28,724 bases of DNA from Candidatus Omnitrophota bacterium (GCA_043803685.1 JAZDJU010000047.1:1-28724), one strand, 5' to 3'; positions 3,990-28,724 are shown, numbered from the stretch's first letter. The notes: generated by a model from the letters alone, not told the origin. Made by a program: numbers and translations.

Positions 3990-4046
3990 AATATTCCTCG
4001 TTTAATTTAGAAAGATTGTGATTGAGGCGGGGGGAAATTGTTGCGA

Positions 4047-4076
4047 AGTATAACATGACGAACAGGGGCTATTCAA
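4047..4076 (-). promoter_or_regulatory. putative promoter for tal-pgi, TTGAAT-18nt-TATACT with extended -10
   Basis: agtata at 4047-4052, preceded on the minus strand by TGT; attcaa at 4071-4076. Confidence 0.5.
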
Positions 4077-5174: not shown

Positions 5175-5225
5175 TCGAGCCAAGCACCACGGGCCACGTG
5201 GCTCGTGGGTCGTGGCTCGTGGCTC
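5175..5225. repeat. inverted heptamer tandem repeat (CCACGnn / CGTGGCT family)
   Basis: gagccaa gcaccac gggccac followed by gtggctc gtgggtc gtggctc gtggctc, between miaA and hflX. Confidence 0.8.
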
Positions 5226-12581: not shown

Positions 12582-13180
12582 ATCAGGGATTCCAGGATGG
12601 GCTGTATGACTTTCACAACGCGACAAATTTTGGCGTATCTCATGATTTCCCTGGGAGACACTTTTTTTTCTGACAGTGCATTTTTAAGGGCCTTGAGAGC
12701 AACATCAAAGCCGATCTTATTTCTAAATTTGAAACAATCAGCGATCGTCTTGGCGAGACTGTAGATCCTGACCTCCTGCCCCACGATCTTCTGAACCTCT
12801 ATTCCCACTTGCCATGCATCCTGAGTAAAACGATAGTATTTCACAGGCGGGTGGCTGATTTTATTAGCGTGAGCACCTCGGGGAATAGCGAGATCGACGT
12901 GACGCGGAATTTCGTCCGTCACTTCATAAAAAGCAAGGGCAGAAATAAGGCATACAACCCCTTTGGGTGCTTTTATGGAAGCAATGAGCAAATCCGGATT
13001 GATGAGATCGTCAACTTCCGCAAGCTTATAAACCGACCTACTCATCTTCTGGACGCGTCCCGAAGCAATGAGAGATTGCAGAATGTCGTTATGAAATCCA
13101 GCTTTTTTAATGTCGGGGTACTGCACAACCCCTCCATGCCGTTTAAAAAGCTCTACAAGGCTATCCCCTCTAGCTCCCAT
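12578..13180 (-). CDS. AbiEi-family antitoxin / transcriptional regulator (type IV TA)
   Basis: N-terminal wHTH-like GRVQKMSRSVY; GVVCLISALAFYEVTDEIP; IYSLAKTIADCFKFRNKIG; translationally coupled to AbiEii. Confidence 0.88.
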   Translation of the reverse strand: MGARGDSLVELFKRHGGVVQYPDIKKAGFHNDILQSLIASGRVQKMSRSVYKLAEVDDLINPDLLIASIKAPKGVVCLISALAFYEVTDEIPRHVDLAIPRGAHANKISHPPVKYYRFTQDAWQVGIEVQKIVGQEVRIYSLAKTIADCFKFRNKIGFDVALKALKNALSEKKVSPREIMRYAKICRVVKVIQPILESLI

Positions 13181-13290: not shown

Positions 13291-16200
13291 TCAAGCCGCA
13301 ATGGCGAAAACAAGACTGCTTTCGTAGGCCTTTTGGATGCCGGTCAATAAAGTTTCCGCGACGGTCCAGAAACCGTCCTTTTCGAGGCTCACGCCGGCAA
13401 GCCTTGCCTTCTCAGCTCCGGAAATTGCCCAGAGAAGCGCCACAGCAAGCGTCCCGCCCTTCTCCCCGTGTTGCTTAAAGAACATGACGCGTTTCCCCAG
13501 GGATCTGACAACCGCAGACGTCGGCTGTACTTCCTTGGAAAGATGGATCGTTGGCATATTCGTTTTGCCGAAAACCGCCAAGGCACGGCTCAGGTCCTGA
13601 TCAGTCCTCGTTACACGGTCGGACTTGAGAAACTCAACCCACTGTTTGTCCCGAACCTGGCCATGCTCATTGTAGACAATGGTCCGCACGGCCTTATTCG
13701 AAAACGCCACATAAAAACACTCCCGCTTCTGCGCCGGAGAAAGGCTTCCAAGATCATCAGCATCCACAAACCACATCGCCGGCTGCACATTCTTCCGGAT
13801 CGCCCGAACTATCGCATCTGCTCCCTCACCGAGAACCTTCGACGAGCCCGGAGTATTTAGTTCGGAGTTCGGAACAACTATTTGTCTCTCCGAGCTCTCT
13901 GCTCCTGTCCCCGAACTAACAAGGTTCCTCAGCTCTGAACGGAAGGCGGTAGAATCCGCTACGGGGCCGGAGAACTCGAGGTGAGAGGCGATGAGCTCGG
14001 ATTCGAACTGGACCTGTTTTTTGCCGTCATGCGGCTGTCGCAGGGGCTCATCCGAAGGATCCGAGGCATGGAACACGGAGAGCTGGATCGTGTGGCCGCC
14101 AAAATCCTGCGTCGTAGGGAGCTGATACGTATCCTGTAATTCTTTGCGAATTGTTTTTTTCTTTTCATTGAAGAGCTGTGCGGCATCGTTACTTGAACGA
14201 ACCAGCAATATCGGGATCACCTCGCCGGAGGTCATATATTGCACAAGTCCCTCAAAGTTAGATCTTTCTTGATGAATTTTGTAAAATTCCCTGACCGTAC
14301 GTTCATCCAAACGAACGGGATTGGCAACATAAACCTCAAAACCTGCCTCCCGAAATTTTTCAATGATCTTGTCCTTGATCAAAAGCCCATCCCTCTTGAT
14401 CATCGCAAAGGTCACTTTCCCCTGTCTGATCCCCTCCACAAACTCTTGGTAGGGATGCATGCCCACCTTGGCGATATCCCGGATCTCCGCCCTGGCCTTG
14501 CCAGGGACGGATCCGTCCTGCTTCGTAGGCAGATCCGAACGTTTAGGCGTGTCATCCGAACGCTGCCACGCTTGGAGATGGAGCTGAGCCTGCTGTTCGG
14601 CGATGAGTTGGCGGACGGTTTTGCCCTGGATCTTGTTGAGCCAGGCAAGAACTTCGGCAGCGCCGTCCATTTTTTCGCCATTCGAAATAAGCACGTGATC
14701 TGCCACGCGCAACGAAAAGGCCTTGTGGTGACTTAGCGCAACGGACAGATCGACCTCCGGCTTATCCGGCGCCGCGAAGTCATGATTTAAGACGGGAAGA
14801 TCGTTGAGCCCGTCACCGATCGCCACCGTCAACAGCAGATCCTTTTCACGCTTTGCAGGATACCGGTGCCTGATGGCCTCGACGCCGTCCAATTTCGTCA
14901 GGGCGGAAACATCCAGAAAATCCAGTCCCGGAATAAACTCGAGCCTCTCCTTCGTTCCAGCCATATCTTTCTTGACCGACTGTGCGGCTTCATAAAAAAA
15001 GTCGTGCCCGAGCCATGGATAGGTCCGGGAGGCCATCACGGTATCGATCGCCATCTTCGCCCCCGAATCATAAATAAACGCGTTTCTTCCAAAAAGCTGT
15101 GGCAAAAGATAAACAACCACGTTCTTACTTTCGCCATCAGGGATCTTTTTCCAATGCCGTAATTTGCGCTGGATCGCCTTCATCGCATCGGCCCGCGAGA
15201 CTTCGATCTGGGACTCCGTCAACGGTACATCGGGAATTTTTCCCGCCTTCAGAAGCGCTTTTAGTTGATCATAAAAAGCATGGGCCATGGAGGTTGCCAG
15301 TCGTCCTTTCATAGGCACCGGCCACGCAGCAACAAGCGGCGAACTATGCAACTCACCGTTTTTGTGAAGTGCGCTGACAATGGTCCCCCCCGCAGATGTT
15401 ATAAACCAACGATGCGTCACGCCTGTCTGAACCAGGTGCCCGATCAGGGATTGCTGTGATCGCACCACCGAATGGGCATCGTCTCCCGTATTCACAATAA
15501 GTCTGTTAGCATCATTGGATTCGACGACGGATCGAGCGTCGACGCCCGTACCAATAATGACCCGATTCGCGTTATACGAGAGAAGATCCATCAACTTATC
15601 GTGAATAGCGTCAGACAGCGGCCTCCCCAGATGCAAGGTGAGCGTTCCTGTATTGTCGGAGATCAGATCGATCGCGATGGGACGGTCCCAGAATTTTGTT
15701 GGCACACGCTGCGCGAGATCGAAAACGGCTGGAACCAGCCGCGCCTCAGAACGGGCGTTCAGGAAATAAAGGAACGTTTTTTCGAGGCCTTCCCGAAGAG
15801 GAACGCTCGGGGCATAATCAAGGATAGTGCGGGCCCGTGTGAGATCGGGCTGACGCTTCACGGGGTCAGAAGGGTCGATGGCCCCCACGACATGCACCGG
15901 CACAGTTCTGTTAAGATGTTTTTTACCCAGCTCATTCACAAGATCCGCGAGCTCTCCAAGAGTAAATTCTCCGTCGTTCCCGATATTGAAGACCCGGTCC
16001 TGGATCGGCGTCGCCGAGGTAAGTTTGTCCGTCCTCAGGAGTTTCAGTAAGCCATCCACGGTGTCATCTACATACCCAAAGCTCCGCGTAATACTCCTGT
16101 TCCCGTAGATCTCGATCGGCTGGCCTGTCAGTACTTTTCCGATAAAATTCGTTACGGCGCGTCCATCATCAAGACGCATAAATGGCCCATAGGTGTTGAA

Positions 16201-19200
16201 AGGTCTCGCAATGCGGAAATCAGGTCCTTTTTCCGCATATTTGGCCGCATAGAGTTTTATTAACGTTTCCGCGCCGCGTTTTGACTGGTCATATTGAGAG
16301 CGCTTCAGGAAGGAACTTACATTCCCCTCGTAGGTCTCCGCTTGGGGATGGACCTTGGCATCGCCATAAACCTCGGAAGTCGATGTGAAAAGAAACCGCG
16401 CATTTTTGCTCAACGCTAACTCGACCATCTCACGGGTGGCCAGCAATCCGGACCGTAAAGTTTCAAGGGGACGCACATAATAGTCCGGCGGACTTGCGAG
16501 CGAAGCAAGATGGATCACCTGGTCCACGGGGCCTTCAATGTCGAACGGTTTGGAGACATCCCATTTCTTGAAATAAAGATCCGGCTCCTTTTGAAAAAAC
16601 GAGGAAAAATCCTTGTTCGCGGTGATCAGATCATCCAGAGCAATGACCTGATGTCCCTCCGCAAGAAGCCTCTTCACCAGATTGATCCCGATGAATCCGG
16701 CAGCACCCGTAACCACGATACGTTTTTTTCCTGCGGGAATCGGTGGCAGGTCCGGCCGGATCATTTCCCGCGCAGCATCGCTCTGTTCCGTTCCCGCAAT
16801 CAGAGCAATCGCTCGCGACTCCAAAGAAAGTTCCGGCTTCCGGGAAGGGATGATCGTAAGAGCATCCGCCAACCTGAACATCCGCGCCTCCATTTGCGAT
16901 TCAGGGGTCCCCCCCTCGACCCGAACATCTTTCGATAAGAGCTTCTTTACGGCCATTGCGATCGGCGCCTGGGGAACATTTACAGCCGGAAGCTGAAGGA
17001 CCCGCACGTCCACATTGCCCAATTCTTTAAACCGGAAATACGCGCTGGCCCAAGCCAAAGCCGTTCGAGCTCCTTCGATCCAGGGGGCTTCTTCTGCCAG
17101 AGGTCCGAAACCGTCCAATTTTTCAGGGATCACAAGGACTACGGGTAACTTTTTCTGAGCGGCGTGTTCGAGCAGTTTCGGAAATTCAAAGACCATTTCA
17201 TTAAAATCGCGCCATGCAGCATCAGAGTTCTTGTTTCCCTTCGGGAGTAGCGGCGTTTGATACGCCAGCCCCTTCTCCGCGCCAGTCCGAGAGTCACGGA
17301 TCACCCAGGCTTCTGCATTCCCCTTCGTTGCTTTCCCCCACACGTCCCGCATCTCCGCCCGATTCTTCGCATCGGGACGGATCCGTCCTTCGCTTTGCAA
17401 AGGCGGATCGGAGCGACGAGCTTCGAGCGTCTTTGCGAAAAAACCGATCGTTTCCGGTCGAGACCGGATCGTTCTGTTCATCGCGTTCCGAATACCCGCC
17501 TCCGTCAAAGCATCGTAATTCTTCAAGAATTCCATGGAAAAAATGCGATTGATGAGTTGGTAGGAACCCCACGTCTCCCCCGGAAGCTCGGGAAGCACGT
17601 CCATCCCGGGTTCCCGGACCACCAGCCAAGCGCTCTTCCCGCTCCAAGCCACACTAAAAGGAAGACCCGCTTTGTCCAATTCCGGAAGAACAGCGGAAAG
17701 TGCCTGCGAAAGGACTTTCACTGTCGGAGCACTCCACCGCGTCACAAAAGCTTCGGAGTCCTTTGCGTCAGCATCAAGCCTCAGACCGGGGAATTCCCTG
17801 GAAAATTGCTCGGCCAGCACACGGCCTTCCGCATCGCGAACGGCAACAAATCCCTCGCCGAGTTCTACCGTTCCTGGATAAACCTTTGCGTGGATGTGAT
17901 TCTGGGATGCTCCCGACATAGCCCCTTCAAAATAGATCGTGAGGCCGCTCGAGTTGAAAGACATCTCCGTAAGATCACTGATATCTTCTTTTGTAAGACG
18001 CTGTTCTCTCAAATTCCCGGGCTTGCTCAAATCTGGAATAAGGAGATATCCACCCCGTTCATCGATCGGGCTGACGTTCTGGTAAACCTGCCAGATCCGG
18101 TGATCTTGCGCCGTGATCCGGGCGACTTCCGGCCGGTTCTTGAGCGCCAATACGCCAGCATCAAATGAACACGTATTGGGATCATGCGGCGCTTTAAATC
18201 TTTGCCTCCGTTCTTCCAAAGATTGGAGAACGAACGGACCTGGGCGCAAACTGCGATTCCAGATGAAATTCGCTATAAAAGGGCCGACCCTTTTTTCAAG
18301 AACGACATCTTGGAGATCTTCCCCCATCGCAAGATCCGTGGCGAATTGCTCCACACTTTCGCGATCCTTCGAGATCCTGACCCCATACTCGATGTCCTGC
18401 CCCGTGCCCGGATCTTTCGTGGTCGTAAGGATCTTTTTGTTTCTCACAAGCCAGAGCCAGCTTTGAGTAAGATTCCGTTCCATCAAGATCATCGGGGATT
18501 TCAACATCGCGCCTATTTCGGTCGCTCCGGCTTGCCGGACCTCGGAGCGATTTCTTTCCACCGCAGCACGAAGACCTTCTTCCAGGGTCATTTCGGGCTG
18601 AGTTCCAGGAAGATGTTTTTGAAGCACGTCATAATCTGAAGGGGTCATCATTTTCAAAGGCTGATCGCCATGATCCTCAAGGTCCGGAAGATCCACGCCC
18701 ACGAACGCGGCGACGTTTTTCAAGACTTCAAGCATCGTATAGACGTGTCCCGTCCCGACATGGACGACCTCGGAATGTCTTTTTTCCTCGCCTTCAAGCA
18801 CTCCAAGAACGCCGCTTAAAACGCCAGCCAATTCCGTGGCGGCCATAAAATCACGCGCGTGGTCTGTGAAATGGATCCCTCGAGGACTCTCTCCCCGCCC
18901 GACTCTCTCCCGGTTCTTTTCTAAATGGTTTAAATAAAAACTGATCACGTTAGGATGCATCCCTTCGCCATAAACATTCACGAAACGGAACGCCCATGCC
19001 TGGGCCAATTCCAGGACATCTTTTTCTGCCAACAGCTTCGAGATGGCATAATTCCCGAAAAGAAGGTCCAACGGGAACCGTTCGCCGATCGCTTTTAGAG
19101 CCTGGGTCACTTTCGGCTGTTGCGTCGCAGGCTTGTTGCCCTCTTCCGCCTTGGCGGGATAATACTGCTCATCCAGAAGATTGACGGCCTCGATCAGACT

Positions 19201-22200
19201 CTCCCACTTGTCACCTTCGTCCAGCCTTTGCACCAAGGGCTTATTAAGAAGGTCCTTTGTGAACTCAAGCGGTGACATTTGTGCCGCGCCCGCCACATAT
19301 TGCGCGACATAGTCATCGAACGCCCGCTGAATTTCCGCCATAAAAGCCTTCGTCACCGGATGGAACGGGATCGGCATTTTTTCTGTGACCGGCGTGGCCA
19401 TGGGCTTCTGGAACAGCTGATTCAATGAAAAAACTTCCTGGCTCGAGCTGTAGACCATCGGAAGCTTCAGCTCCTTGGCAACACGAGCGATCAACTTTGT
19501 ATAGAACACGTTGAGCACATAGGTCCTAACGGCAAAACTTTCATAAGTCTCCCCACGTGCCTTGTTAGGCCGCACATGGGTTTGCGCGGCCAAGTGATAA
19601 ACCACCGTAGATTTGCCTAACAGTTGCTTCAAAAGCTCATAAGAAGCACCCCTCTCGTCCATCCTCATTGGATCCAGGGAATCTCCGGTATCCACAAAGA
19701 CCACCCGTTCTGCAAGTCCGTCTTTGCCAAGCGCTGCAACCACCCCCAGCAGGTTCTTGGCATGTTCCGCGGAGATCCCGGCCCGGATGGGGACTGCAAC
19801 CTGCCGCCCTTCCCGCGCAAGCTTCTCAATAAGATGCGCTCCGATCATTCCTGTCCCGCCAATGATGACAGGCCCTTTAAAATCCGATGCCAAAAATTGC
19901 GCGAGACCCACGGTCGGCAGTTCTTTTGGCTGAACCTCGCGTCTCGTTTCCGACCGGGAATTATAAATGGATAGCTCTCGCTGGACATCTGGATTAACCT
20001 GAGTTCCGTCATTATCAGCTGTCGCCACAAAAACAGGTTTATGAACCTCAAAGGAAGGAAAATCCATATCCCTCCGTTCTCTGATCCAATCAAGGAATTT
20101 ATCCAATACATCCTTTCCCATAGGCCTTTCTAATCGAGCCACCGTAATATGAAAACTCATCTCGTTGGCCCAGCGTTCTCTATCCGGGATTAATCCGCTC
20201 CACTGAGTGCGAAGATCTCCAAGAGAGTTTCCCTCAACAAAGCCATTAACAACAATCGAACCTGCCGGGCCGTTATCGATCCCTTTTAAATGAACCCGGA
20301 AAGGCTTGAATGCCCCCCGAATCCGCGTGATTTTCTTAAGAAGATCCCTTAGTTCCAAACTCAATTGTTTCGGATCACTTTGATCGTCCGATAAAGCTGA
20401 TTGAGCTACGTCGAAGAGAGTCGCGTGAAATTGGCCTCTTCCTGTGACTTTAAACTGAGGAAATTTCATTTTAATTTCTCGAGCAACGCCATCCAAGGCG
20501 TCGACGAGTTCAGGCGGAAAGTCGGATAAAGCTCCCGAAACCTCCCCATATCCCGCGTCGAGACTGATATTTAAAACTCGGTAGTTATGCCTCGGCTGCG
20601 GAATACGCCCTTGAGCCCAAAGTTTTTCTCTGTTATTCCGCGTAGTCTCGTAAAAAGCCCGCTGCTTTTCGACGTAGTCGTCCGCCCCACTGCGAGCCTC
20701 CGACCGTTTGCTAAAACCCGCTTTGAGAAGCAATTGTTCCACCTCAACAGGATCGAGACTCGCGGCACGGAACGCTTGATCGATCTGTGCTTCAGTCAGA
20801 TCTTTCTTCTCCGGCATCACAGTGACGATCCCGGCGGCTTCAAGCACGTGAACGGTATGATTTTCTCCTAAAATGGCTCCGACCTCACCGATCGGCGTGT
20901 TGGGTTTCCCCATAAACACAACGACCTTCCCTTTGAGAACGACCGTCCAGTGAGGGATCTGATCCGTCTGTAGATTACGGATCAGCTTCATCGCGCTCCC
21001 GGCAAGCTTTTGAAGGTCATCATCCTGAAACACCACGTGAGAAAGCGGCCATTCACTGGCCTGCAACAGACTTACGCCCTCGTCCTTCCCGATCAACCCG
21101 GCACGAGGCAAAAGCTTTTCGAACGGTAGATTCTCTGTCGTCACATGGATATGAAGCTGCTCGGCCGTATACCATTCTGTATTCTGAAGAAACTTCATCC
21201 CTGGATTTTTTTCCGAAAGCGCCAAAGACACTTCGAGATCTTCCGTCGTCAGGATATTGGGCCGTACCGTTTCGTCATCTGCGATCATAAGCGTATGAAA
21301 AGGCACGGTGAGCTCTTGCGGCGCCACCATGAAATACTTCCGCGTCAGGGTCTCAAGCCGCGCGAGGATCCCCCGTTCGTCGAGGAATTTCTGGATTTTC
21401 CTGAAATAAAACCTGTTGAGATCCACAGGCCTGTTCGGCTTTAGCCCTTGAGCGTTAGGCTTGCCCTGCGAGGCCGGATCAAGCGCCAGATCGAACTTTC
21501 CCTTCGTGACCCGCTCCGGGATCTTTTCCTTCTGGGCTTGAACGAAAGCATTTTCTCTCCACGACCGCTCAAAATACGATTCAAACTGATCCGAACCGAT
21601 CGTATCCCCCTCGGATCCTGTGAGCTCGATATTTCGCATTTCAGAACGAAAATTGGAAACAGCGCTGCTCAAGGGAATGATTTCATCGCGTAAAAAAATC
21701 CCAAAAGATCCACGCCCCATTTCCCGTAAGGCATCAAGCGCTTTTAAATAAATGGGCTGCTGAAGTTGATTCTCTCTTGCATTTTCAAGCCATCGAAGAA
21801 CTGGATAAGCCGTTTGAAAGAAGAAGAAATCCGGGATTACATCAATTTCATCTGAACTCAATGGCTCAGAAGCTGTTTTCTGGTAGACCTGAACTGCTTC
21901 GAGAGTTTCCTGTTTGAGATTTGAAACAACCCAGTTGAGTTTTCGCGCGCCAAACATCATCAGAGGCAGAAAATCTTCAAAACGATAAGCCATTCGAGCC
22001 TGCACAAGATCAAAAACTCCAATGACCTCCTGCCCAGTCGGATTAAATATCATATTGGTTAAATTAAAATCACTTGGAATAGGAATTTTTTTCAGTTTTT
22101 TCATTGTCTTTAAGAGACGCGGGACAGATTGCGTCATAACGACATGAAGCATGGCATAATCTTCAGGGGCAAGAATGCGACGCGCCTTTTCAATAAATTC

Positions 22201-25200
22201 TTTTCTTGAATACAACCCCTGAGAGGAGAGAACCACCTTCCTGAGGTCATATTGGTGAAACCAAAATGTCCAGGGTTTCCAGTTTTTGCTGGCATCATGA
22301 ATTCTTGCTAGCATCGAGCTCGCTGCCCTCAGATTTTCCAGAGAAGCTTCATTTCGAAAAATCGGCCGTCCCAAAACTCGTTTTTCAACTGTATAAAAAA
22401 CGATTCCTCTGGCTTCAGGATCTTGAACGGGAAAAAGATAATGCTGAGTCGCTTGTTTCGGAATCAGAGGAACTGGGATATCAGCTTGTTGAAGAAGCAT
22501 GATGTATTTTTCAAAAAAACTCGCGTCCGCTTGCCTCATAGGAGAACTATCGGACTGTCGCAACTTTTTGATAAAAAACTCACCTTGATCAGTCTGAACA
22601 AAAAATCCGATAAGCGGTCTACCGCGCATTCTTTTAACAATTTTTTGAACTTTCAAGACTTCTCCTATGTCGAATTGATTCGGGATCCCCGCAAGGTAAA
22701 AAGGCAGGCCCGGCATTAATTCAAGGTCAAGATAGCGCGCATCCAGCAGCTCTTTCATTGTCAAGCCTGAGGCATCGCTATCTCGCGCTTCTGAACCCCG
22801 CATTTCAGAACGAGTGGATGAAATGGGCTGTAGGATAATGTCGAGAAGATGACTGAAACCTGGGAGAGCGCTGGCGTCGGCGACGGAATTTTTGACGAAT
22901 CTTCCGAGCGGGTTGCTCGGCCACGACATCAGGCCGTGGCTGTCGCTTCCGGAAACCGATAAAAGAGGATGCGCAGAATAATAAGGATCTTCGGTGTTCA
23001 AGTTTTTAATTTGTTGCAGGACAAAATCCTTATGACGACTCCGGGCCAGTTTGTGGCTGACAAGCTCAACTCCCAACAGATTTTCCGCTGAAAGTCTCCC
23101 CTCCCGGGCAGCTTTGGACAGCTCCTGCATAAGAGACTCGAAAACGCCCTCTTCCTGCTCGATGATCTCATTCGGGTGCGCCACGGCGATCTTGGCGCCC
23201 ATCGCACGCGCAAATTCCAGCGTCTCATTCAACTGGGGATACAAGCGTCTCTCTTCTTCCGTCAAAGAGTGAACCGGCACATAAGGAACAATAAAGTTAT
23301 ACCAGACGTCCTTGCCTGACTTGATGTTATATCTTTCGAGAGCCACCTTCCCGGCGGGATCGTCCTTATATTTTTCCCATATCGCATCCCCCACCCCGGA
23401 GTTGTATTTTTCATAACGGTAGATCGCATTGAGCTCCTCAAGGGTCAAAGAAAATTCCGGATGATGTTCGTTGATCCAGTACATGATCCTCTCGGCCCTT
23501 GGACCATTCACAGCTCTCGCCTCTTTCAGCTTCTGCGTAAAACGTTCCAGGACCGGCCTCTCGGCCCCCTCACGCGTCTCAAAAAATGACGGCATGTACA
23601 GAAGCAGATGAACTTCCGGTCCTCCGAAAAAGGTCGTGACCTCGATCCCGGGGATCAGCGTAAAAGAAGGCACCTTCATGCCCGTCTTACTATTTATTTT
23701 CTCGATCTTCTCATTCAAGATTTTCGCCGCCCGCGAGGTTTCTTCTCCAGGAAGATAGTTATGGTCTGTTAATGCCACGCCACGCAACCCCTCCTCAAAA
23801 GCATGCAAAATGTACGCCGTTGGCGTATCGTAAGCATCCGACCGGTAGGAATGAGTGTGGAGATCGACCTCACGCTCCGAAGGTCTCGGGAATTCTGTTC
23901 TGGCAATGATCCCGGGCAGGATCGCTGCGAACGCCTCCAAGCGGAGCGCCTCATACTCATCCCCAAGCACTTCCTCCACGATCTTCCGACCCGCCGCTTC
24001 CCTGATCGCCTCATTTTTCGAGGTCTTCATCAGTTTTTCCAACTGCCGAATCACCGCCATATCCTTGATGGAATGATCCATATTCAAAAGCAAGCGCACC
24101 TCTGAGGATATATCTAAAATTTCAGAGGGCATAGTGGTTGGCGTAATCCCCCGGGGCTTAGTTTGCAAAGAATATTGTTGGATTTTCCGAACTTCCTCAG
24201 CGGCATCTTTAATGGCGGCAATCGCCTCGGCTGGATCCCACTCGTTCAAATTAATCTCTGGAGACCAAATGCCGACCTTTTCAATGCCAAGTGATGCCAG
24301 CGATTCATTACCAAGGGGATAATGCAGTGTAAAGGTTGGCCCTGCTCGACGATGAAGAATTGAAGCAATTATGACCCTCTTTGGAGACAAACGAAGCGTG
24401 TCCACAACTTCACGAGACTCTAGAACATTAGTTGTTGTGTTGGTCGAGCTTTTCCCCATAAAATCTGGGCGAACACCAAGATCACCCATGGCTTTTGCGA
24501 AATATTCCGCTTCCGAGACCCTCTTTCCATCGACCTCATAGTTACCTGCCATCTGTTGATCTTTTCCGTAATTGCCCACCACGATCACCTTCATGTCCGG
24601 GTTTTGCTTGCGAAGCTCAAGAGCTACGCGAGCCGCCTCTTTAGGCACATCCAGATATCCTGATCCAAAAACCATCATGGCATCGAATGGGCCTTCCCCA
24701 AGCAGATCACGATCATCTTTCAGGACGTGATACATTTCTCTTTTCGCATCATAAATCTGCCGCGCGTTCACATAAGCAACCAGCTTTTGCCCAAGCTCAT
24801 AAATTCTTGGAAGATACTGATTATCGTAACCATGTTGAAGCATGTTATTTGAAACTGCTAAGTGCGCGGTCATTTGCCGCATCTCGGATCGGACGCTCTG
24901 CCTCTGATCAATCGAGCCAAGATGTCGTTCGATGAGTGAAGGCTCAGCGTGATCCCCCAAAGCTTCCACGGAAGAAGTAAGGGCGCGAAGTTCCGAACGA
25001 ACCGCAGAAGCTTCCCCAGAAGCGACTGCTGCGTGAAAAATACCGGGGGGTTTATTGGCGCGAGCCACGAGAAAGGGCGTTTCAAAGGAATGATGGCCCA
25101 CCGACATGAGCTGTTTGTAGTAATCCTGATGTTTTTTGGAGATCGAGGTGATCCGGGGTGAGATCACGACGTAGGACACGCCCTGCTCTTTCAGGATCTC

Positions 25201-26721
25201 TTTTATAGCGTTCGCGTGGAATCCGCCGTACACAAGAATCGCCGTTTCCGCGCCACGGTCCACGCTCCACGCACCACGCTTATCCTTTTTCGTGGCTCCT
25301 GGCTCGTGGATCGTGTCCCCCCATAAGTAGTGATCCAGGGCTTTCGCAAGCGAGCGATCCCTCGATCGCGCTATGTCATAAAAGCGGACCGCGTCCTGAA
25401 TGTGTTGTTCCCAGGACTTGGAAAGCACGAGAGACTTATGGGTCTGAGAGACAATGAAATCCGCCATACCTTGGGTGTGAAAGAAACTGGATGGCGGAGG
25501 GCGGATGGAGGAGGGCGCCAAACCAGCGTTTACGCTATCCGCCATCCGCCATCCGATACCCTCGGCGCGAAGCGCCGCATACTCATCCTGCGTCACTTCG
25601 ATCCTGTTGAGCCGCTTCAGAAGTTCGAGGCCCTGATAATAGGCAAAGATCCGCTGATCTCGTTCATTTGTCAGAAAAGCGCCGGAAACATCCTTCTCCA
25701 GCCGCATCATTTCCTCAAAAACAACTTTGGAGTCGAGCGCATTCAATTGCTTGATCAGCTTCTTGTCTTTTGATTTCTCAGCCGTCAGAAGAAGCGAAGT
25801 GGCAGGATATTCCTCTGAAAACATTTTCCCCTCACCCTCCCCTCTCCCCCTTGCTGGGGGAGAGGATAAAGGAGAGGGGGTGAGATCAAACGATTCAAAA
25901 TAGATCTTCTGGAGATCCCTTAGATAATCCAGTAGCGGCAGTTTCCGTTCCCCGAAACGTTCCTTCGCCTTGAGCAAGGTCTTGAGCTCCCGGGGGAAAT
26001 ACTGGTTGGCAAGGATGGTGATCTGACTGAAAAGCTCACGGAGGTCTTCTTCCGTACCCTGGCGGTTCACGGAAGCCCTCTGGTAAGCTCCGATATTTTC
26101 AGAATACAGCTTGAGATCGTCGACGCCGATGAGTTGCCAGTTCGTTCCACGATCCACGTCTCCCGTGCCACGCACAAGCTTTTCCGTGGCTCGTGGCTCT
26201 TGGCTCGTGGCTCGATTGATATGCGCATACTCCGCGCCGCCGATGCGGAGTTTATCGAGTAGAAAATAGGAAACCTTCTGTTTGACGGCCGGGTCTTTGA
26301 TAAACCCAAAGAACTTGTCCGTGGGAACGGGGCCTTCATAGCCTTCCTCAAAGACCGTCTTCACCCCCTTCTCTTTTACAAGGTGATCAATGATCTTCGC
26401 GATATTCTCCTGCGCTTCGAGAGAGTCGTGGGCGTCTTGAATGAAGACAACCGTTTTGGGTGCCACGGGCCAGGAGCCACGGGCCAAGTTACGTGGATCG
26501 TGGGTCGTGGCGCGTGGCTCGAGGTAAACTTCTTCTATCTTCCCAAGCTCTGAAGGGATCGTGAATCCAGCGTTGGCGACTTGAACCACAGGATCAGAAG
26601 TTTTGGCGAGAGTCACCGGAGCGGGAATAAAGGCCTGGGTCGAAATGAAGGCGACGAGCGTAAGGAGGGCGACGCTCTTCACGGGAGACGATTTTCTAAG
26701 GGTATTCCCGGATCCGTTCAT
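13291..26721 (-). CDS. giant (4476 aa) multi-enzyme protein with signal peptide and R[SA]ExR-delimited modules
   Basis: Uninterrupted 13.4-kb ORF with an AAGGAAAGGA RBS-like tract, a basic-then-hydrophobic N-terminus and at least 10 recognisable enzyme domains (see sub-features). Confidence 0.92.
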   Translation of the reverse strand: MNGSGNTLRKSSPVKSVALLTLVAFISTQAFIPAPVTLAKTSDPVVQVANAGFTIPSELGKIEEVYLEPRATTHDPRNLARGSWPVAPKTVVFIQDAHDSLEAQENIAKIIDHLVKEKGVKTVFEEGYEGPVPTDKFFGFIKDPAVKQKVSYFLLDKLRIGGAEYAHINRATSQEPRATEKLVRGTGDVDRGTNWQLIGVDDLKLYSENIGAYQRASVNRQGTEEDLRELFSQITILANQYFPRELKTLLKAKERFGERKLPLLDYLRDLQKIYFESFDLTPSPLSSPPARGRGEGEGKMFSEEYPATSLLLTAEKSKDKKLIKQLNALDSKVVFEEMMRLEKDVSGAFLTNERDQRIFAYYQGLELLKRLNRIEVTQDEYAALRAEGIGWRMADSVNAGLAPSSIRPPPSSFFHTQGMADFIVSQTHKSLVLSKSWEQHIQDAVRFYDIARSRDRSLAKALDHYLWGDTIHEPGATKKDKRGAWSVDRGAETAILVYGGFHANAIKEILKEQGVSYVVISPRITSISKKHQDYYKQLMSVGHHSFETPFLVARANKPPGIFHAAVASGEASAVRSELRALTSSVEALGDHAEPSLIERHLGSIDQRQSVRSEMRQMTAHLAVSNNMLQHGYDNQYLPRIYELGQKLVAYVNARQIYDAKREMYHVLKDDRDLLGEGPFDAMMVFGSGYLDVPKEAARVALELRKQNPDMKVIVVGNYGKDQQMAGNYEVDGKRVSEAEYFAKAMGDLGVRPDFMGKSSTNTTTNVLESREVVDTLRLSPKRVIIASILHRRAGPTFTLHYPLGNESLASLGIEKVGIWSPEINLNEWDPAEAIAAIKDAAEEVRKIQQYSLQTKPRGITPTTMPSEILDISSEVRLLLNMDHSIKDMAVIRQLEKLMKTSKNEAIREAAGRKIVEEVLGDEYEALRLEAFAAILPGIIARTEFPRPSEREVDLHTHSYRSDAYDTPTAYILHAFEEGLRGVALTDHNYLPGEETSRAAKILNEKIEKINSKTGMKVPSFTLIPGIEVTTFFGGPEVHLLLYMPSFFETREGAERPVLERFTQKLKEARAVNGPRAERIMYWINEHHPEFSLTLEELNAIYRYEKYNSGVGDAIWEKYKDDPAGKVALERYNIKSGKDVWYNFIVPYVPVHSLTEEERRLYPQLNETLEFARAMGAKIAVAHPNEIIEQEEGVFESLMQELSKAAREGRLSAENLLGVELVSHKLARSRHKDFVLQQIKNLNTEDPYYSAHPLLSVSGSDSHGLMSWPSNPLGRFVKNSVADASALPGFSHLLDIILQPISSTRSEMRGSEARDSDASGLTMKELLDARYLDLELMPGLPFYLAGIPNQFDIGEVLKVQKIVKRMRGRPLIGFFVQTDQGEFFIKKLRQSDSSPMRQADASFFEKYIMLLQQADIPVPLIPKQATQHYLFPVQDPEARGIVFYTVEKRVLGRPIFRNEASLENLRAASSMLARIHDASKNWKPWTFWFHQYDLRKVVLSSQGLYSRKEFIEKARRILAPEDYAMLHVVMTQSVPRLLKTMKKLKKIPIPSDFNLTNMIFNPTGQEVIGVFDLVQARMAYRFEDFLPLMMFGARKLNWVVSNLKQETLEAVQVYQKTASEPLSSDEIDVIPDFFFFQTAYPVLRWLENARENQLQQPIYLKALDALREMGRGSFGIFLRDEIIPLSSAVSNFRSEMRNIELTGSEGDTIGSDQFESYFERSWRENAFVQAQKEKIPERVTKGKFDLALDPASQGKPNAQGLKPNRPVDLNRFYFRKIQKFLDERGILARLETLTRKYFMVAPQELTVPFHTLMIADDETVRPNILTTEDLEVSLALSEKNPGMKFLQNTEWYTAEQLHIHVTTENLPFEKLLPRAGLIGKDEGVSLLQASEWPLSHVVFQDDDLQKLAGSAMKLIRNLQTDQIPHWTVVLKGKVVVFMGKPNTPIGEVGAILGENHTVHVLEAAGIVTVMPEKKDLTEAQIDQAFRAASLDPVEVEQLLLKAGFSKRSEARSGADDYVEKQRAFYETTRNNREKLWAQGRIPQPRHNYRVLNISLDAGYGEVSGALSDFPPELVDALDGVAREIKMKFPQFKVTGRGQFHATLFDVAQSALSDDQSDPKQLSLELRDLLKKITRIRGAFKPFRVHLKGIDNGPAGSIVVNGFVEGNSLGDLRTQWSGLIPDRERWANEMSFHITVARLERPMGKDVLDKFLDWIRERRDMDFPSFEVHKPVFVATADNDGTQVNPDVQRELSIYNSRSETRREVQPKELPTVGLAQFLASDFKGPVIIGGTGMIGAHLIEKLAREGRQVAVPIRAGISAEHAKNLLGVVAALGKDGLAERVVFVDTGDSLDPMRMDERGASYELLKQLLGKSTVVYHLAAQTHVRPNKARGETYESFAVRTYVLNVFYTKLIARVAKELKLPMVYSSSQEVFSLNQLFQKPMATPVTEKMPIPFHPVTKAFMAEIQRAFDDYVAQYVAGAAQMSPLEFTKDLLNKPLVQRLDEGDKWESLIEAVNLLDEQYYPAKAEEGNKPATQQPKVTQALKAIGERFPLDLLFGNYAISKLLAEKDVLELAQAWAFRFVNVYGEGMHPNVISFYLNHLEKNRERVGRGESPRGIHFTDHARDFMAATELAGVLSGVLGVLEGEEKRHSEVVHVGTGHVYTMLEVLKNVAAFVGVDLPDLEDHGDQPLKMMTPSDYDVLQKHLPGTQPEMTLEEGLRAAVERNRSEVRQAGATEIGAMLKSPMILMERNLTQSWLWLVRNKKILTTTKDPGTGQDIEYGVRISKDRESVEQFATDLAMGEDLQDVVLEKRVGPFIANFIWNRSLRPGPFVLQSLEERRQRFKAPHDPNTCSFDAGVLALKNRPEVARITAQDHRIWQVYQNVSPIDERGGYLLIPDLSKPGNLREQRLTKEDISDLTEMSFNSSGLTIYFEGAMSGASQNHIHAKVYPGTVELGEGFVAVRDAEGRVLAEQFSREFPGLRLDADAKDSEAFVTRWSAPTVKVLSQALSAVLPELDKAGLPFSVAWSGKSAWLVVREPGMDVLPELPGETWGSYQLINRIFSMEFLKNYDALTEAGIRNAMNRTIRSRPETIGFFAKTLEARRSDPPLQSEGRIRPDAKNRAEMRDVWGKATKGNAEAWVIRDSRTGAEKGLAYQTPLLPKGNKNSDAAWRDFNEMVFEFPKLLEHAAQKKLPVVLVIPEKLDGFGPLAEEAPWIEGARTALAWASAYFRFKELGNVDVRVLQLPAVNVPQAPIAMAVKKLLSKDVRVEGGTPESQMEARMFRLADALTIIPSRKPELSLESRAIALIAGTEQSDAAREMIRPDLPPIPAGKKRIVVTGAAGFIGINLVKRLLAEGHQVIALDDLITANKDFSSFFQKEPDLYFKKWDVSKPFDIEGPVDQVIHLASLASPPDYYVRPLETLRSGLLATREMVELALSKNARFLFTSTSEVYGDAKVHPQAETYEGNVSSFLKRSQYDQSKRGAETLIKLYAAKYAEKGPDFRIARPFNTYGPFMRLDDGRAVTNFIGKVLTGQPIEIYGNRSITRSFGYVDDTVDGLLKLLRTDKLTSATPIQDRVFNIGNDGEFTLGELADLVNELGKKHLNRTVPVHVVGAIDPSDPVKRQPDLTRARTILDYAPSVPLREGLEKTFLYFLNARSEARLVPAVFDLAQRVPTKFWDRPIAIDLISDNTGTLTLHLGRPLSDAIHDKLMDLLSYNANRVIIGTGVDARSVVESNDANRLIVNTGDDAHSVVRSQQSLIGHLVQTGVTHRWFITSAGGTIVSALHKNGELHSSPLVAAWPVPMKGRLATSMAHAFYDQLKALLKAGKIPDVPLTESQIEVSRADAMKAIQRKLRHWKKIPDGESKNVVVYLLPQLFGRNAFIYDSGAKMAIDTVMASRTYPWLGHDFFYEAAQSVKKDMAGTKERLEFIPGLDFLDVSALTKLDGVEAIRHRYPAKREKDLLLTVAIGDGLNDLPVLNHDFAAPDKPEVDLSVALSHHKAFSLRVADHVLISNGEKMDGAAEVLAWLNKIQGKTVRQLIAEQQAQLHLQAWQRSDDTPKRSDLPTKQDGSVPGKARAEIRDIAKVGMHPYQEFVEGIRQGKVTFAMIKRDGLLIKDKIIEKFREAGFEVYVANPVRLDERTVREFYKIHQERSNFEGLVQYMTSGEVIPILLVRSSNDAAQLFNEKKKTIRKELQDTYQLPTTQDFGGHTIQLSVFHASDPSDEPLRQPHDGKKQVQFESELIASHLEFSGPVADSTAFRSELRNLVSSGTGAESSERQIVVPNSELNTPGSSKVLGEGADAIVRAIRKNVQPAMWFVDADDLGSLSPAQKRECFYVAFSNKAVRTIVYNEHGQVRDKQWVEFLKSDRVTRTDQDLSRALAVFGKTNMPTIHLSKEVQPTSAVVRSLGKRVMFFKQHGEKGGTLAVALLWAISGAEKARLAGVSLEKDGFWTVAETLLTGIQKAYESSLVFAIAA
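13942..14478 (-). other. giant-protein module: nucleoside diphosphate kinase domain
   Basis: TFAMIKRDG, FYKIHQERSNFEGLVQYMTSG, catalytic-His motif FHASD. Confidence 0.85.
14542..15738 (-). other. giant-protein module: HAD-superfamily hydrolase domain
   Basis: Motif I SDNTGTLT, motif III KLDGV, motif IV AIGDGLND. Confidence 0.7.
15754..17346 (-). other. giant-protein module: unassigned ~190 aa plus UDP-glucuronate decarboxylase-like SDR
   Basis: VVTGAAGFIG, HLASLASPPDY, FTSTSEVYGD, YDQSKRGAET, FNTYGPFMRLDDGRAVTNFI, DPVKRQPD. Confidence 0.85.
17416..18534 (-). other. giant-protein module: HIT-like, GDP-hexose phosphorylase (GDPGP1/DUF4922)-like domain
   Basis: NVSPI...YLLIP...QRLT...GASQNHIHAK pattern. 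Confidence 0.55.
18550..19941 (-). other. giant-protein module: NAD-dependent epimerase/dehydratase (extended SDR)
   Basis: IIGGTGMIG, VYHLAA, YSSSQEVF, YAISK, FRFVNVYG, RDFM, TLEEGL. Confidence 0.8.
19957..20691 (-). other. giant-protein module: 2H phosphoesterase (2'-5' RNA ligase-like) domain
   Basis: Two HxT motifs, FHATL and FHITVAR, with typical spacing. Confidence 0.75.
20707..21633 (-). other. giant-protein module: second HIT-like phosphorylase domain (tentative)
   Basis: PFHTLMI...QLHIHV...LPFE and LEAAGIV pattern, similar to GDPGP1/DUF4922-type domains. Confidence 0.45.
21649..22797 (-). other. giant-protein module: APH / type II homoserine kinase-like phosphotransferase
   Basis: VQTDQGEFFIKK, IPVPLIP, MLARIH, PSDFNLTNMIF, VIGVFDL. 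Confidence 0.75.
22813..24876 (-). other. giant-protein module: DUF218 (YdcF/ElyC-like) domain followed by PHP phosphoesterase domain
   Basis: DAMMVFGS, VIVVGNYG, SEAEYF, SSTNTTTNV; then VDLHTHS, VALTDHN, PGIEVT, EVHLL, AVAHP, GSDSHG. Confidence 0.8.
25253..25315. repeat. in-frame inverted heptamer repeat (CCACGnn / CGTGGCT family)
   Basis: ccacggt ccacgct ccacgca ccacgct ... cgtggct cctggct cgtggat cgtg; shares 19 identical nt with the nadE copy. Confidence 0.85.
25489..25554. repeat. in-frame inverted heptamer repeat (GGATGGC / GCCATCC family)
   Basis: ggatggc ggagggc ggatgga ggagggc ... gctatcc gccatcc gccatcc. Confidence 0.8.
25831..25884. repeat. in-frame REP-like nested hairpin
   Basis: ctcaccc..cctctccccc-ttgct-gggggagagg..gggtgag; encodes LTPSPLSSPPARGRGEGE. 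Confidence 0.75.
26146..26214. repeat. in-frame inverted heptamer repeat (CCACGnn / CGTGGCT family)
   Basis: tccacga tccacgt ctcccgt gccacgc ... cgtggct cgtggct cttggct cgtggct. Confidence 0.8.
26462..26521. repeat. in-frame inverted heptamer repeat (CCACGnn / CGTGGCT family)
   Basis: gccacgg gccagga gccacgg gcca ... cgtggat cgtgggt cgtggcg cgtggct. Confidence 0.85.
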
Positions 26722-27077: not shown

Positions 27078-28724
27078 CTACGCCGATTTACCGATCGCTT
27101 CAGCGGCGCGGATCTCGGCGCTCAGGACTTCGGCCACTGTAAGAGTTGACGCAAAACCGACGGGTCTGTTAAATCCGAGGAAGGCCAGGATCCCGCTCAA
27201 CTTTGCGACCTCGCCGTAAGCCCTGATCTCGTCTGCGCTGATCTGGGCATCCCCACGCATCATGACCTGGACCACGCTCTTACTGACCTCGCCCGGCTGA
27301 AGCTTCAGATCAAATGCCTTCAATTGTTCGCTCGCGATCGTGGCAAGGTTAGCGCTTGAGGCAAGCTCAAATCCATCAAATCCGGTGATACGGGCTTCCA
27401 CGTCCGTCCGGTTCTCATCCTTGGCAACAACCACGATCAAAGCCTTCGGATTCTCGCGCCGTAATTGCATGAGGCCATCAAGACCCAAACGCTCGTACGA
27501 CACCACCAAACGGGTCTGGTCCTTGTAGGATTCCAAACCGAGTTCCTGCATCATTTTCGCGATCTTCGCCATCATGCGCACTTCTGCTCGTGAAGCTGCT
27601 TCATTCAACGGAACTTGTCGCTCTAATTGACCCGCCTGCAGAGATTCTGCCGCCGCAATCAATGGAACCGGCGCCTTAGGAGTAGCGAGGGTCTTCACGA
27701 CTTTCGGCTCGGACGCTTTCGCCATAGCCGCCTGAATAGCCGCCGCCTGCGCAGCTTCGACTTCAGCATTCACCAAAGATTCATCCGCTGTTCGCAATTC
27801 CGAGCGCTGCATTTCAACATTGGCAGCCTTCAGCGCATTAGCCACCCCACGCGAAAGGCTATCGATCGACGCGGAGCTCTGAAGGATCTCTGGCGAAAGC
27901 GTGGTCGCAAAGATCTTATTGGTAAGATCGGACTCAACGACTTTCAGCAATTCTCTCAAGCTCAAACCGCCTGCTAAAACATGAGAATCAGCCCAAGTAC
28001 GACCATCCCCCATCTTCTGCCAGATCCGCGTACCGGAAGCGACATTCCCGATCACGGCTTTGATGACACCATTCACTTTGATCAGATACTGAAGAGCAAA
28101 ATGGCCCGCGGGAACATACAGCTCTTTACCCGGAAGCAGAGAGCTGAATACCGCGGCATTTTCGGGAACATGCAATTTACCGATAGAATCGCGCACATAT
28201 CCGAAGACTTCGCTGCCTCTCTCAAGGACCGTATCCCCCACAACGATCGCACGGGGACCGAGCGTCACATTCTTGGCGATCCTCACGTTCGGCCCCACGA
28301 TCCTCCCTGGGAACCGTTGCCACATCTCGGGAGTCACCTGCGAACGATACCACTCATCGATCCCCAAGATCCCAACACCCAGGAGGCGACGCGAGGCTTC
28401 ACTGTCGAAAAGCGACTGGGCGATCTGCCACGTCTGCTCAGCATCGTTGGCGTGCAGATAAAGCGAGTGTGAGCCCAGATTCACAAAGCTGAATCCAAAA
28501 ACCTCTTCGGCTTCCTTGGCCATGGCCTTCATGGCGTTAAAGAACTCGACGTCATCCCCGATATTCTGATATCCCAAGCTGGAATAGCGTTTCTTATAGA
28601 TCTCGGGATATTCTTCTCCGAATGTACCCGCCTCGAACAAGGACTCAACCCAGTTGATCGGCGGATGGGTCGGGAAACGCTGTTTCAGTTCTTCAAGTTT
28701 CTTGTTCACCCAGAAATAGGCTGG
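27078..28724 (-). CDS. C-terminal part of another R[SA]ExR-containing, probably large modular protein; 5' end lies outside the window
   Basis: The frame stays open beyond the GTG at 28709 to the window edge (PAYFWVNKK...); hexapeptide-like stretch GPNVRIAKNVTLGPRAIVVGDTVL; RSELR at 27792-27806 and RAEVR at 27576-27590. Confidence 0.8.
   Translation of the reverse strand, partial: PAYFWVNKKLEELKQRFPTHPPINWVESLFEAGTFGEEYPEIYKKRYSSLGYQNIGDDVEFFNAMKAMAKEAEEVFGFSFVNLGSHSLYLHANDAEQTWQIAQSLFDSEASRRLLGVGILGIDEWYRSQVTPEMWQRFPGRIVGPNVRIAKNVTLGPRAIVVGDTVLERGSEVFGYVRDSIGKLHVPENAAVFSSLLPGKELYVPAGHFALQYLIKVNGVIKAVIGNVASGTRIWQKMGDGRTWADSHVLAGGLSLRELLKVVESDLTNKIFATTLSPEILQSSASIDSLSRGVANALKAANVEMQRSELRTADESLVNAEVEAAQAAAIQAAMAKASEPKVVKTLATPKAPVPLIAAAESLQAGQLERQVPLNEAASRAEVRMMAKIAKMMQELGLESYKDQTRLVVSYERLGLDGLMQLRRENPKALIVVVAKDENRTDVEARITGFDGFELASSANLATIASEQLKAFDLKLQPGEVSKSVVQVMMRGDAQISADEIRAYGEVAKLSGILAFLGFNRPVGFASTLTVAEVLSAEIRAAEAIGKSA

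Follow-up and report, generated by a model that had tools for sequence, protein, structure and literature searches.

A strict R-[SA]-E-x-R pentapeptide bounds the exchangeable enzyme cassettes of a giant Omnitrophota protein and its relatives

The giant multi-enzyme protein P0001 is encoded by one open reading frame (ORF) within a 28,724-nucleotide stretch of DNA from Candidatus Omnitrophota bacterium (GCA_043803685.1 JAZDJU010000047.1:1-28724), the whole of which is referred to here as the window. Eleven copies of the pentapeptide R-[SA]-E-x-R divide P0001 into a chassis, made up of N- and C-terminal parts that recur in its relatives, and a series of enzyme cassettes (Table 1). The family to which it belongs is large and unannotated, joining the fixed chassis to variable, mostly nucleotide- or sugar-metabolising cassettes, and these cassettes are units of evolution, gained, lost and reordered exactly at the motif. 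The facts require the motif to be a functional, residue-specific signal between cassettes. As to what the signal does, cleavage is a plausible reading and, judged from sequence, the most likely one: an endopeptidase would process the precursor at every motif, making P0001 a polyprotein of free enzymes, a proposal to which we give a probability of about 45%. A preliminary description of this DNA had taken the motif for the punctuation of a candidate polyprotein or cassette system; the cassette system is strongly supported, the motif delimiting evolutionary modules across the family.

A regular-expression scan of the translated ORF places the motifs at residues 575, 611, 1304, 1692, 2006, 2256, 2725, 3121, 3657, 4077 and 4261, and the coordinates, residues and codons reported for them earlier are all exact. 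Composition alone predicts 0.21 copies in P0001, and 5,000 shuffles of its residues gave a mean of 0.21 and a maximum of 4. The string seldom occurs in pieces, R.E.R belonging to a full motif in 11 of 11 cases and RSE.. in nine of nine. The 12 ordinary ORFs of the window (~4,195 residues) hold no copy, and in a six-frame scan of the window only the coding frame is enriched, with 13 motifs against 0-2 in each of the other five. Two degenerate copies set beside the full ones in the preliminary description, SSEVR (residue 872, 24094-24108) and GSEAR (residue 1309), are indeed present but carry no weight, because x-S-E-x-R with x other than R stays at background throughout the family (per residue, no more than 18 are observed where 2-18 are expected). 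The probability that the motif is an accident of composition, or a signal at the level of the mRNA, is practically nil. The motif is GC-rich, and 50-nt windows over it fold at -12.0 kcal/mol against a background of -9.6 kcal/mol, being 2.3 kcal/mol more stable; this difference, however, is gone when measured against shuffled sequences (z-score -0.29 at the motif, -0.22 in the background), and mRNA structure was rejected as the signal. Rfam and tRNA scans of the window gave no match, and the counts in P0001, the near-empty alternative frames and the 34-fold enrichment in the wider family described below speak equally against such an origin.

Fourteen clear giant relatives of 2,544-6,601 aa, one of them named Candidatus Omnitrophota, were found in a set of 5.8 billion proteins. 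The N-terminal ~540 residues are common to them (37-84% identity) and the C-terminal ~180 are kept in most; their enzyme content differs. Each carries 6-22 motifs, where 0.16-0.47 would be expected, and two weak matches carry none. A phmmer search with the N-terminal domain (N-domain) returned 4,753 representatives at E <= 1e-3, 1,078 at E <= 1e-10 and 287 at E <= 1e-30, with the domain always in N-terminal position and the longest relative among the matches listed reaching 7,652 aa. In 145 further N-domain proteins (408,182 aa) there are 898 motifs against 26.1 expected, the 34-fold excess mentioned above; 133 of them have at least one motif, and ten of the 12 that have none are fragments of at most 690 aa. 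In species-representative genomes, 154 relatives were confirmed and 80 loci (L001-L080) retained, up to five to a genome. All phylum-named records among these loci are Omnitrophota, save for one bin labelled Planctomycetales; the protein relatives with a named source are Candidatus Omnitrophota or Omnitrophica, though two database matches are labelled Verrucomicrobiae, and searches of plasmid and phage collections with the N-domain gave no match. The family ORFs of the 80 loci contain 420 motifs in 209,692 aa, whereas the 505 neighbouring ORFs (162,403 aa) contain six against 6.5 expected, which is background; of 39 motifs initially placed outside flagged family ORFs, nearly all lie in adjoining truncated family genes. 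Minimal members of the family (P0126 with 805 aa, P0112, P0078 and P0084) hold little beyond the N-domain, one or more motifs and the C-terminal region, and in some the motif is found within the last helix, 12-22 residues before the C-terminus. Elsewhere the cargo extends to sigma-70 regions 2 and 4, SecA-like domains, histidine-kinase ATPases and radical SAM enzymes (P0168, P0175, P0206, P0199 and others), functions of a cytoplasmic type in proteins whose N-terminus is signal-like. A second family gene stands in tandem with the giant gene, upstream of it and in the same orientation; the first module of its ORF shares 44% identity with the module at 2206-2537 of a family ORF at L004, and tandem family genes also occur at L004, L015, L023, L037, L041 and L061.

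That the motif coincides with module boundaries is seen both in domain annotation and in the comparison of homologues. None of 93 motifs in 11 proteins falls inside a Pfam envelope, where 18.9 would be expected at the 20% coverage of these proteins (P = 7e-10). The earlier remark that no full motif lies inside an enzyme domain agrees with this count. When the proteins are aligned all against all by BLAST, 154 of 1,516 aligned blocks start on the first Arg of a motif (offset 0) and 103 of 685 end on the last Arg (+4); 26% of block edges are within +-5 residues of a motif, against 2.6% for random positions. Residues 1692-2010 of P0001 correspond to 2522-2843 of P0004, which has motifs at 2522 and 2839, and residues 3121-3661 correspond to 1537-2077 of P0004, with motifs at 1537 and 2073, so that the two cassettes occur in reverse order in this relative. 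The closest relative, P0003, is without residues 611-1692, 2006-2256 and 3657-4077 of P0001, each a motif-bounded stretch. Module swaps at the motif, for which the preliminary description had proposed to compare homologous giant genes, are thus seen as reordering, insertion and deletion.

The anatomy of the motif was determined from 160 family members (472,292 aa, 1,047 motifs). Positions 1, 3 and 5 are close to absolute: Arg, Glu and Arg are counted 822 times each, against at most 18, 17 and 18, respectively, for any alternative, and neither Lys nor Asp is tolerated. Position 2 is Ser (822) or Ala (225), with Pro next (26), and position 4 is mostly aliphatic or small (V 282, L 246, M 195, A 123, I 83, T 52, S 38), charged and aromatic residues, Gly and Pro being found there almost never. 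S, A, V and P are enriched at the residue preceding the motif and T, S and N at the residue following it, and the flanks from about -10 to +15 are poor in bulky hydrophobic residues, the motif being set, as a rule, in a short hydrophilic segment. The median spacing between motifs is 297 aa, and the lengths between them (n = 1,039) are bimodal, with 190 below 60 aa, 77 of 60-150 aa and 652 of 150-800 aa; 171 of 895 spacings are tandem copies 11-60 aa apart, and a motif lies a median of 191 aa before the C-terminus. In BLAST blocks that run across a motif, 53-61% of the aligned pairs agree at R1, E3 and R5, compared with 17-30% at flanking positions. Owing to the poor alignment of the linkers, no more than 825 of 2,550 cases, which are not independent of each other, show the motif at an exactly aligned position.

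It had been argued from the differing codons of the copies in P0001 that selection acts on the peptide. Both parts of this argument are borne out, the second by the strictness of the motif, by the identity at R1, E3 and R5 and by the use of all six Leu codons discussed below; codon choice is nevertheless biased over 466 motif sites. The first Arg is CGC in 211 cases and CGT in 142, with 108 and 76 expected (353 against 184 for the two together), Ser is TCN in 365 of 387 cases, leaving 22 AGY against 121 expected, and the second Arg is CGG in 175 cases against 121. The Ser bias is compatible with a closed mutational network of TCN and GCN codons for Ser and Ala. Two RAExR copies are accompanied by an identical 16-nt perfect palindrome, GGGACGGATCCGTCCT, at 14504-14519 and 17374-17389, 11-13 nt from the RAEIR and RAEMR codons; it is translated in different frames (QDGSVP and EGRIRPD), and ~0.03 such occurrences would be expected by chance in the region. 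The codon bias, the palindrome and the recombination of cassettes at the motif would all suit a passive scar or hinge, an inherited linker or a recombination microhomology that no protein reads. Such an origin is nonetheless quite improbable, given that conservative replacements are excluded, that R1, E3 and R5 are kept where the flanks are not, that wobble positions are free, and that position 4 is fixed by genome at sites beside unrelated cassettes; an excess of RNA structure is likewise missing. A DNA-level repeat as the cause was also rejected, the repeat search having returned a single near-repeat (D18, two motif-coding stretches) and no long repeats at the junctions.

An indication that something reads the motif comes from position 4. 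The probability that two motifs have the same residue there is 0.40 within a protein, 0.52 if they belong to different proteins of the same genome and 0.18 if they come from different genomes, and none of 1,000 shuffles of the genome labels reached 0.52. In the genome with L015, L018, L048, L069 and L074, all 34 sites, spread over six proteins, have Leu at position 4, written with six Leu codons and within 32 distinct 15-mers, which speaks for selection on the residue and not for homogenisation of the DNA. Leu is likewise found at 27 of 28 sites in the genome with L068, L070 and L079, whereas the genome with L012, L029 and L037 has mostly Ala (16 of 23). Fixation of position 4 throughout a genome, at sites beside unrelated cassettes, argues for a shared reader with a lineage-specific pocket, and a co-evolving, sequence-specific reader of the motif is indicated by these patterns.

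Each cell would, on the proposal favoured here, possess one such reader, with a position-4 pocket that differs between lineages. The reader would most likely be an endopeptidase that cuts the precursor at each site, perhaps after the second Arg, in which case the aliphatic residue would be P2 and the Ser, Thr or Asn that follows P1', and one exported precursor would give rise to a set of free enzymes together with short spacer peptides. The conserved N-domain is a candidate for this reader, no evidence favouring it over the product of a separate gene. An endopeptidase is ranked first because of the strictness of the motif, which excludes Lys and Asp, the small residues on its flanks, its usually flexible context and the short spacers between tandem copies. 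NDK and UXS-type SDRs, moreover, act as oligomers, which form more easily from free than from tethered subunits.

Several observations weigh against this proposal. When the two Leu-only genomes are removed, what remains of the genome effect at position 4 is small (0.25 against ~0.18), and in an approximately unbiased (AU) test a single clade of the Leu-only paralogues is not rejected (p = 0.58), so that shared descent may account for part of the position-4 pattern. An ancient paralogy of the Leu-only genome's copies was dropped, the scatter of their N-domains in a FastTree tree not being upheld by the same test. Leu-only proteins are not set apart from the rest by any column of the N-domain, and position 4 therefore lends no support to the N-domain as its reader. 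Peptidase families are absent from the Pfam and NCBIfam matches of P0001, and clustering of the 505 neighbouring ORFs brought out no peptidase that recurs, with an MsbA-type exporter (9 of 80 loci) as the top cluster. Motif 1 (residues 575-579) is part of a helix (571-591) in a block with a predicted local distance difference test (pLDDT) score of 90-96, motif 9 abuts the last SDR helix with no linker between, and in some relatives a motif lies inside the C-terminal domain (C-domain). Neighbouring proteins do not avoid the motif, and radical SAM, sigma-70 and SecA-like cargo sits poorly with export. As for the N-domain, Foldseek searches of the PDB with the whole model found nothing at E <= 0.001 (best E 0.1, TM ~0.1), although a search with all 611 residues, large helical insert included, could miss a small common core. 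PF04187 (ChaN, of the Tiki superfamily), the one family to recur, is matched by the N-domains of 4 of 43 relatives (E 1.9e-5 to 0.034) and, in a second set, by 1 of 30 (8.5e-5), and not by that of P0001 itself; its best score is 25.2 bits against a cut-off of 27.7, and the matches are confined to the final third of the profile. The N-domain segments ..QDAH.., ..EEG.., ..RD.. and ..GGFH.. recall the GxxH/Glu pattern of Tiki, TraB, ChaN and EreA proteins, yet neither profile nor fold bears the likeness out, and a Tiki/ChaN-like hydrolase was set aside, the PF04187 matches being below threshold and a Foldseek neighbour wanting.

All the evidence for a reader and for boundaries would apply equally to docking without cleavage, in which the train of enzymes stays intact and the motif is bound by a common partner that organises or moves it. 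Such a partner might be a chaperone or scaffold, a machine for secretion or translocation that takes the cassettes singly, or the chassis itself. The available text of a 2026 preprint (10.64898/2026.06.07.730766) takes such proteins as membrane-anchored assemblies. Tandem copies could increase avidity, a motif in a confident helix packed with the N-domain, or inside some C-domains, suits binding better than cutting, and no protease has been found. Docking is nevertheless placed second, behind cleavage, in that binding motifs usually accept Lys for Arg and Asp for Glu, as this one does not, and in that the small residues ahead of the first Arg and the small P1'-like ones after the second resemble a protease site. 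Oligomeric enzymes are, besides, hard to assemble when tethered, and no partner was found, the sole recurrent neighbour being the exporter named above. Very improbable, finally, is a site of post-translational modification on Arg, Glu or Ser that marks linkers for regulation or attachment. Strict residues and a lineage-specific position 4 would suit a modifying enzyme as well as a protease, but Ala in 225 of the 1,047 copies means that Ser is not an obligatory acceptor, modification does not explain why the motif stands at every cassette boundary, and no modifying enzyme occurs throughout the family. Cleavage by an endopeptidase stays the favoured reading.

The chassis to which the cassettes are attached has features of its own. 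Residues 14-32 are the sole hydrophobic segment among the 4,476 residues of P0001, preceded or begun by the basic R9, K10 and K15 and modelled as a helix from 13 to 29, and a hydrophobic N-terminal segment is present in 105 of 160 relatives. The N-terminal 575 residues have no match among Pfam, NCBIfam or PDB-sequence profiles. Across 53 sequences the N-domain keeps H98, E102, E125, E126, E129, D156, R159, E164, H167, R170, E438, R454, D455 and H502 near-invariant, and such a set of His, Glu, Asp and Arg residues suggests that it may be an enzyme; its model (611 aa) has a mean pLDDT of 81.7, a predicted template modelling (pTM) score of 0.82 and seven strands in the alpha/beta core. At the other end, a model of residues 4077-4476 recovers the NDK fold, with both motifs at pLDDT ~28-35 and the last seven residues flexible, so that two of the three modelled motif copies lie in low-confidence stretches. 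The C-domain gave no Pfam match in 16 C-termini, and the C-terminal 216 residues of P0001 none in Pfam, NCBIfam or PDB; the best hit of its PDB profile search, NAD synthetase at E = 0.28, is not significant, and Foldseek searches (PDB, BFVD) with the joint model of NDK and C-domain gave NDK matches and noise. The protein ends in a tail with the consensus Y-x-x-x-[LVF]-[VAI]-[IFV]-[AS]-x-[AS]-A (13294-13314 in P0001). An [AS]A end is found in 112 of 160 proteins, in 101 of the 127 with at least 1,500 aa, and in 27 of 32 family ORFs whose 3' end is complete, compared with nine of 487 other ORFs. The tail looks like a C-terminal recognition tag; its ..AxAA ending presumably resembles tags such as ssrA or those of Tsp/Prc substrates, a likeness we take as a lead only.

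Cysteine is depleted seven-fold in the family (0.15% against 1.03% in neighbouring ORFs), and P0001 has two Cys in 4,476 residues against 39 in the 4,195 of the rest of the window. Together with the signal-like N-terminus this suggests that the products may be located outside the cytoplasm or in another cell. A wider picture, which is tentative and rather doubtful as a whole, would see in the family exported 'protein operons' that supply a sizeable share of the enzymes of Omnitrophota: several paralogous chassis precursors to a genome, served by a dedicated, co-evolving endopeptidase, exchanging cassettes at its sites and delivering Cys-poor enzymes that act outside the cytoplasm, possibly inside a host or prey cell.

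Many distinct enzyme domains tile P0001, none of them dominating, and their assignment rests on Pfam and NCBIfam searches. The labels given in the preliminary description stand for DUF218 (E = 7.7e-7), PHP (1e-5), the APH-type kinase (1.5e-9), the two SDRs (3e-14 for the first, 7.7e-43 for the UXS-like Epimerase) and NDK (2e-14). They are weak for 2H/LigT (2e-4) and for the second HIT-like domain (Ap4A_phos_N, 1.4e-3), both below cut-off, and for HAD (Hydrolase_3, only 0.12), and the segment called the first HIT-like domain (residues 1697-2005) has no Pfam or NCBIfam match. Cassette G is the most widespread, occurring in 10 of 14 close relatives at varying ranks.

Table 1. Features of the giant gene, its motifs and cassettes, and the adjoining family gene (nucleotide positions in the window; residues numbered within each ORF).
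Feature	Position	Strand	Residues	Description
Giant ORF P0001	13291-26721	minus	4,476 aa + stop	13.4 kb; chassis and nine motif-bounded cassettes A-I
N-terminus	26605-26721	minus	1-39	Basic, hydrophobic at 14-32, signal peptidase I-like site TLA/K (cut before K); putative signal peptide or anchor
N-domain	25000-26604	minus	40-574	Alpha/beta core with large helical insert; ~530 aa
Motif 1	24985-24999	minus	575	RSELR
Spacer, motif 1 to motif 2	24892-24984	minus	31 aa	Kept in close subfamily (..SSVEALGD..LIER)
Motif 2	24877-24891	minus	611	RSEMR
Cassette A	22813-24876	minus	616-1303	DUF218 and PHP phosphoesterase, no motif separating the two
Motif 3	22798-22812	minus	1304	RSEMR, followed by degenerate GSEAR (1309)
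Cassette B	21649-22797	minus	1309-1691	APH-type kinase
Motif 4	21634-21648	minus	1692	RSEMR
Cassette C	20707-21633	minus	1697-2005	No family match; also motif-to-motif in P0003 and P0004
Motif 5	20692-20706	minus	2006	RSEAR
Cassette D	19957-20691	minus	2011-2255	Weak 2H/LigT phosphoesterase; missing from closest relative P0003
Motif 6	19942-19956	minus	2256	RSETR
Cassette E	18550-19941	minus	2261-2724	Extended SDR (Epimerase/NAD_binding_4)
Motif 7	18535-18549	minus	2725	RSEVR
Cassette F	17362-18534	minus	2730-3120	Weak Ap4A-phosphorylase-N / HIT-like
Motif 8	17347-17361	minus	3121	RAEMR
Cassette G	15754-17346	minus	3126-3656	Unassigned region of ~200 aa and UXS/ArnA-like SDR
Motif 9	15739-15753	minus	3657	RSEAR; immediately follows conserved SDR end ..EKTFLYFLN
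Cassette H	14494-15738	minus	3662-4076	HAD-like, GDGLND in sequence; Pfam E = 0.12; missing from P0003
Motif 10	14479-14493	minus	4077	RAEIR; model pLDDT 28 (low confidence)
Cassette I	13942-14478	minus	4082-4260	NDK fold
Motif 11	13927-13941	minus	4261	RSELR; block pLDDT ~35 (low confidence)
C-domain	13294-13926	minus	4266-4476	Alpha/beta, pLDDT 80-92; long helix, flexible tail ..LVFAIAA-COOH
Upstream ORF	27078-28724	minus		Second family member, 5'-truncated at window end; RSELR (307), RAEVR (379), 0 Cys, tail ..AIGKSA-COOH

Proteins divided into modules by short sequences are known from other systems. MARTX toxins are giant exported proteins whose swappable effector modules are freed by cleavage of the linkers, with a repertoire that is shuffled between strains; they carry RTX repeats and a C80 cysteine protease, activated by inositol hexakisphosphate and cutting after Leu, and they leave the cell by type I secretion without an N-terminal signal peptide. 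P0001 is like them in its swappable modules, but it has no Pfam or NCBIfam match to RTX repeats or the C80 protease at E <= 0.01 and its site is a strict pentapeptide. In viral polyproteins, a short, strict site at each boundary co-evolves with its protease (NIa of potyviruses, 3C of picornaviruses, NS3 of flaviviruses). P0001 shares with these the single ORF and the repeated boundary site, and differs in being cellular, chromosomal and one of several paralogues, as well as in that its cleavage is a proposal. Polymorphic toxins bear demarcation motifs, VENN in CdiA and PxxxxDPxGL in Rhs, the latter also a site of autoproteolysis. These mark module exchange as the family motif does; the toxins, however, have one junction, between shaft and tip, where the family has 6-22 between enzymes, and no toxin and immunity logic is evident in the family. 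The same string, as R-[ST]-E-[LV]-R, is also known as a single active-site strand in the beta-jelly-roll of PL7 alginate lyases; P0001 has no PL7 match in Pfam, and its motif is repeated between domains.

A literature search for the literal pentapeptide returned only papers on PL7 alginate lyases, in agreement with the earlier view that the motif is undescribed. Giant multi-domain proteins, in contrast, are known in Omnitrophota, as had been stated before and as two preprints confirm in their available text (10.1101/2023.11.21.568195; 10.64898/2026.06.07.730766); the novelty here lies in the code that punctuates the proteins, in their chassis and in a position 4 that is specific to the genome. 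In the portions of these sources at hand, Seymour et al. 2023 (PMC10066038) call giant ORFs poorly understood, West-Roberts et al. 2023 (10.1101/2023.11.21.568195) describe 'Archaeovorins' and dockerin-type giants, treat the cleavage of giant Omnitrophota proteins as an open question with unknown cleavage points and report that missing cleavage points blocked structure prediction, and Nielsen & Lui 2026 (10.64898/2026.06.07.730766) define 'multi-enzyme metabolic clusters' among proteins of at least 10,000 aa only. As far as these portions go, the giants resemble P0001 in phylum, in an N-terminal signal peptide or anchor and in carrying unrelated enzyme Pfams on one polypeptide, and their cargo overlaps with that of the family (HATPase_c, radical SAM, PPDK_N, NUDIX, HAD, TPR/HEAT, methyltransferases). 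They differ in length (at least 10,000 or at least 30,000 aa) and in their many transmembrane helices, P0001 having 4,476 aa and one hydrophobic segment, and C39 and S8 peptidase domains, proposed for their processing, have no counterpart in P0001. Both preprints, in the same portions, raise the cleavage of the products or leave it open. In the available text of Nielsen & Lui 2026 the strings 'motif', 'cleav', 'linker', 'proteoly' and 'processing' occur 0 times, and in that of West-Roberts et al. 2023 'motif' occurs once, in the title of a reference, and 'linker' 0 times.

The motif is the best available candidate for the sites at which such giants are cut or otherwise read. It provides a concrete map of where to split sequences for modelling, which peptides to seek in proteomics and which residues to mutate, and N-domain, motif and C-tail together define an unannotated family of thousands of representatives whose constant parts are without a counterpart in Pfam, NCBIfam or PDB. 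Should cleavage be confirmed, the family would be the equivalent in cells of the viral polyproteins and would offer a natural toolkit for expressing several enzymes in stoichiometric amounts; should the same code punctuate the phylum's giants of 10,000-147,000 aa, the largest proteins known would gain the cleavage map that they lack.

Beyond the two family genes, the window encodes an amidase, a transaldolase-PGI fusion, a GTPase, MiaA, ArgRS, RsfS, an MGMT-like protein, NAD synthase and an AbiEii/AbiEi pair. The fusion is a 957-aa ORF (1116-3989, minus) that joins transaldolase (3e-80) and phosphoglucose isomerase (1.7e-10). The AbiEii pair lies directly downstream of the giant gene and consists of an ORF for an AbiEii-type nucleotidyltransferase toxin (11655-13180, minus; Pfam 7.6e-44) that overlaps a 200-aa ORF without Pfam match in the position of the antitoxin. 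Heptamer palindromes (GAGCCAC / CGTGGCT) forming hairpins of 60-70 nt and -24 to -35 kcal/mol were found at 25253-25321, 26147-26215 and 26489-26522. All three are in frame within the coding region of the N-domain, where they add peptides like ..EPRAT..RG.., and the same palindrome core recurs on the plus strand at 5197-5225, between the GTPase and miaA genes, and at 10059-10073, within the NAD synthase ORF. These palindromes are similar to repeats of the REP or RPE type, whose insertion in frame is tolerated.

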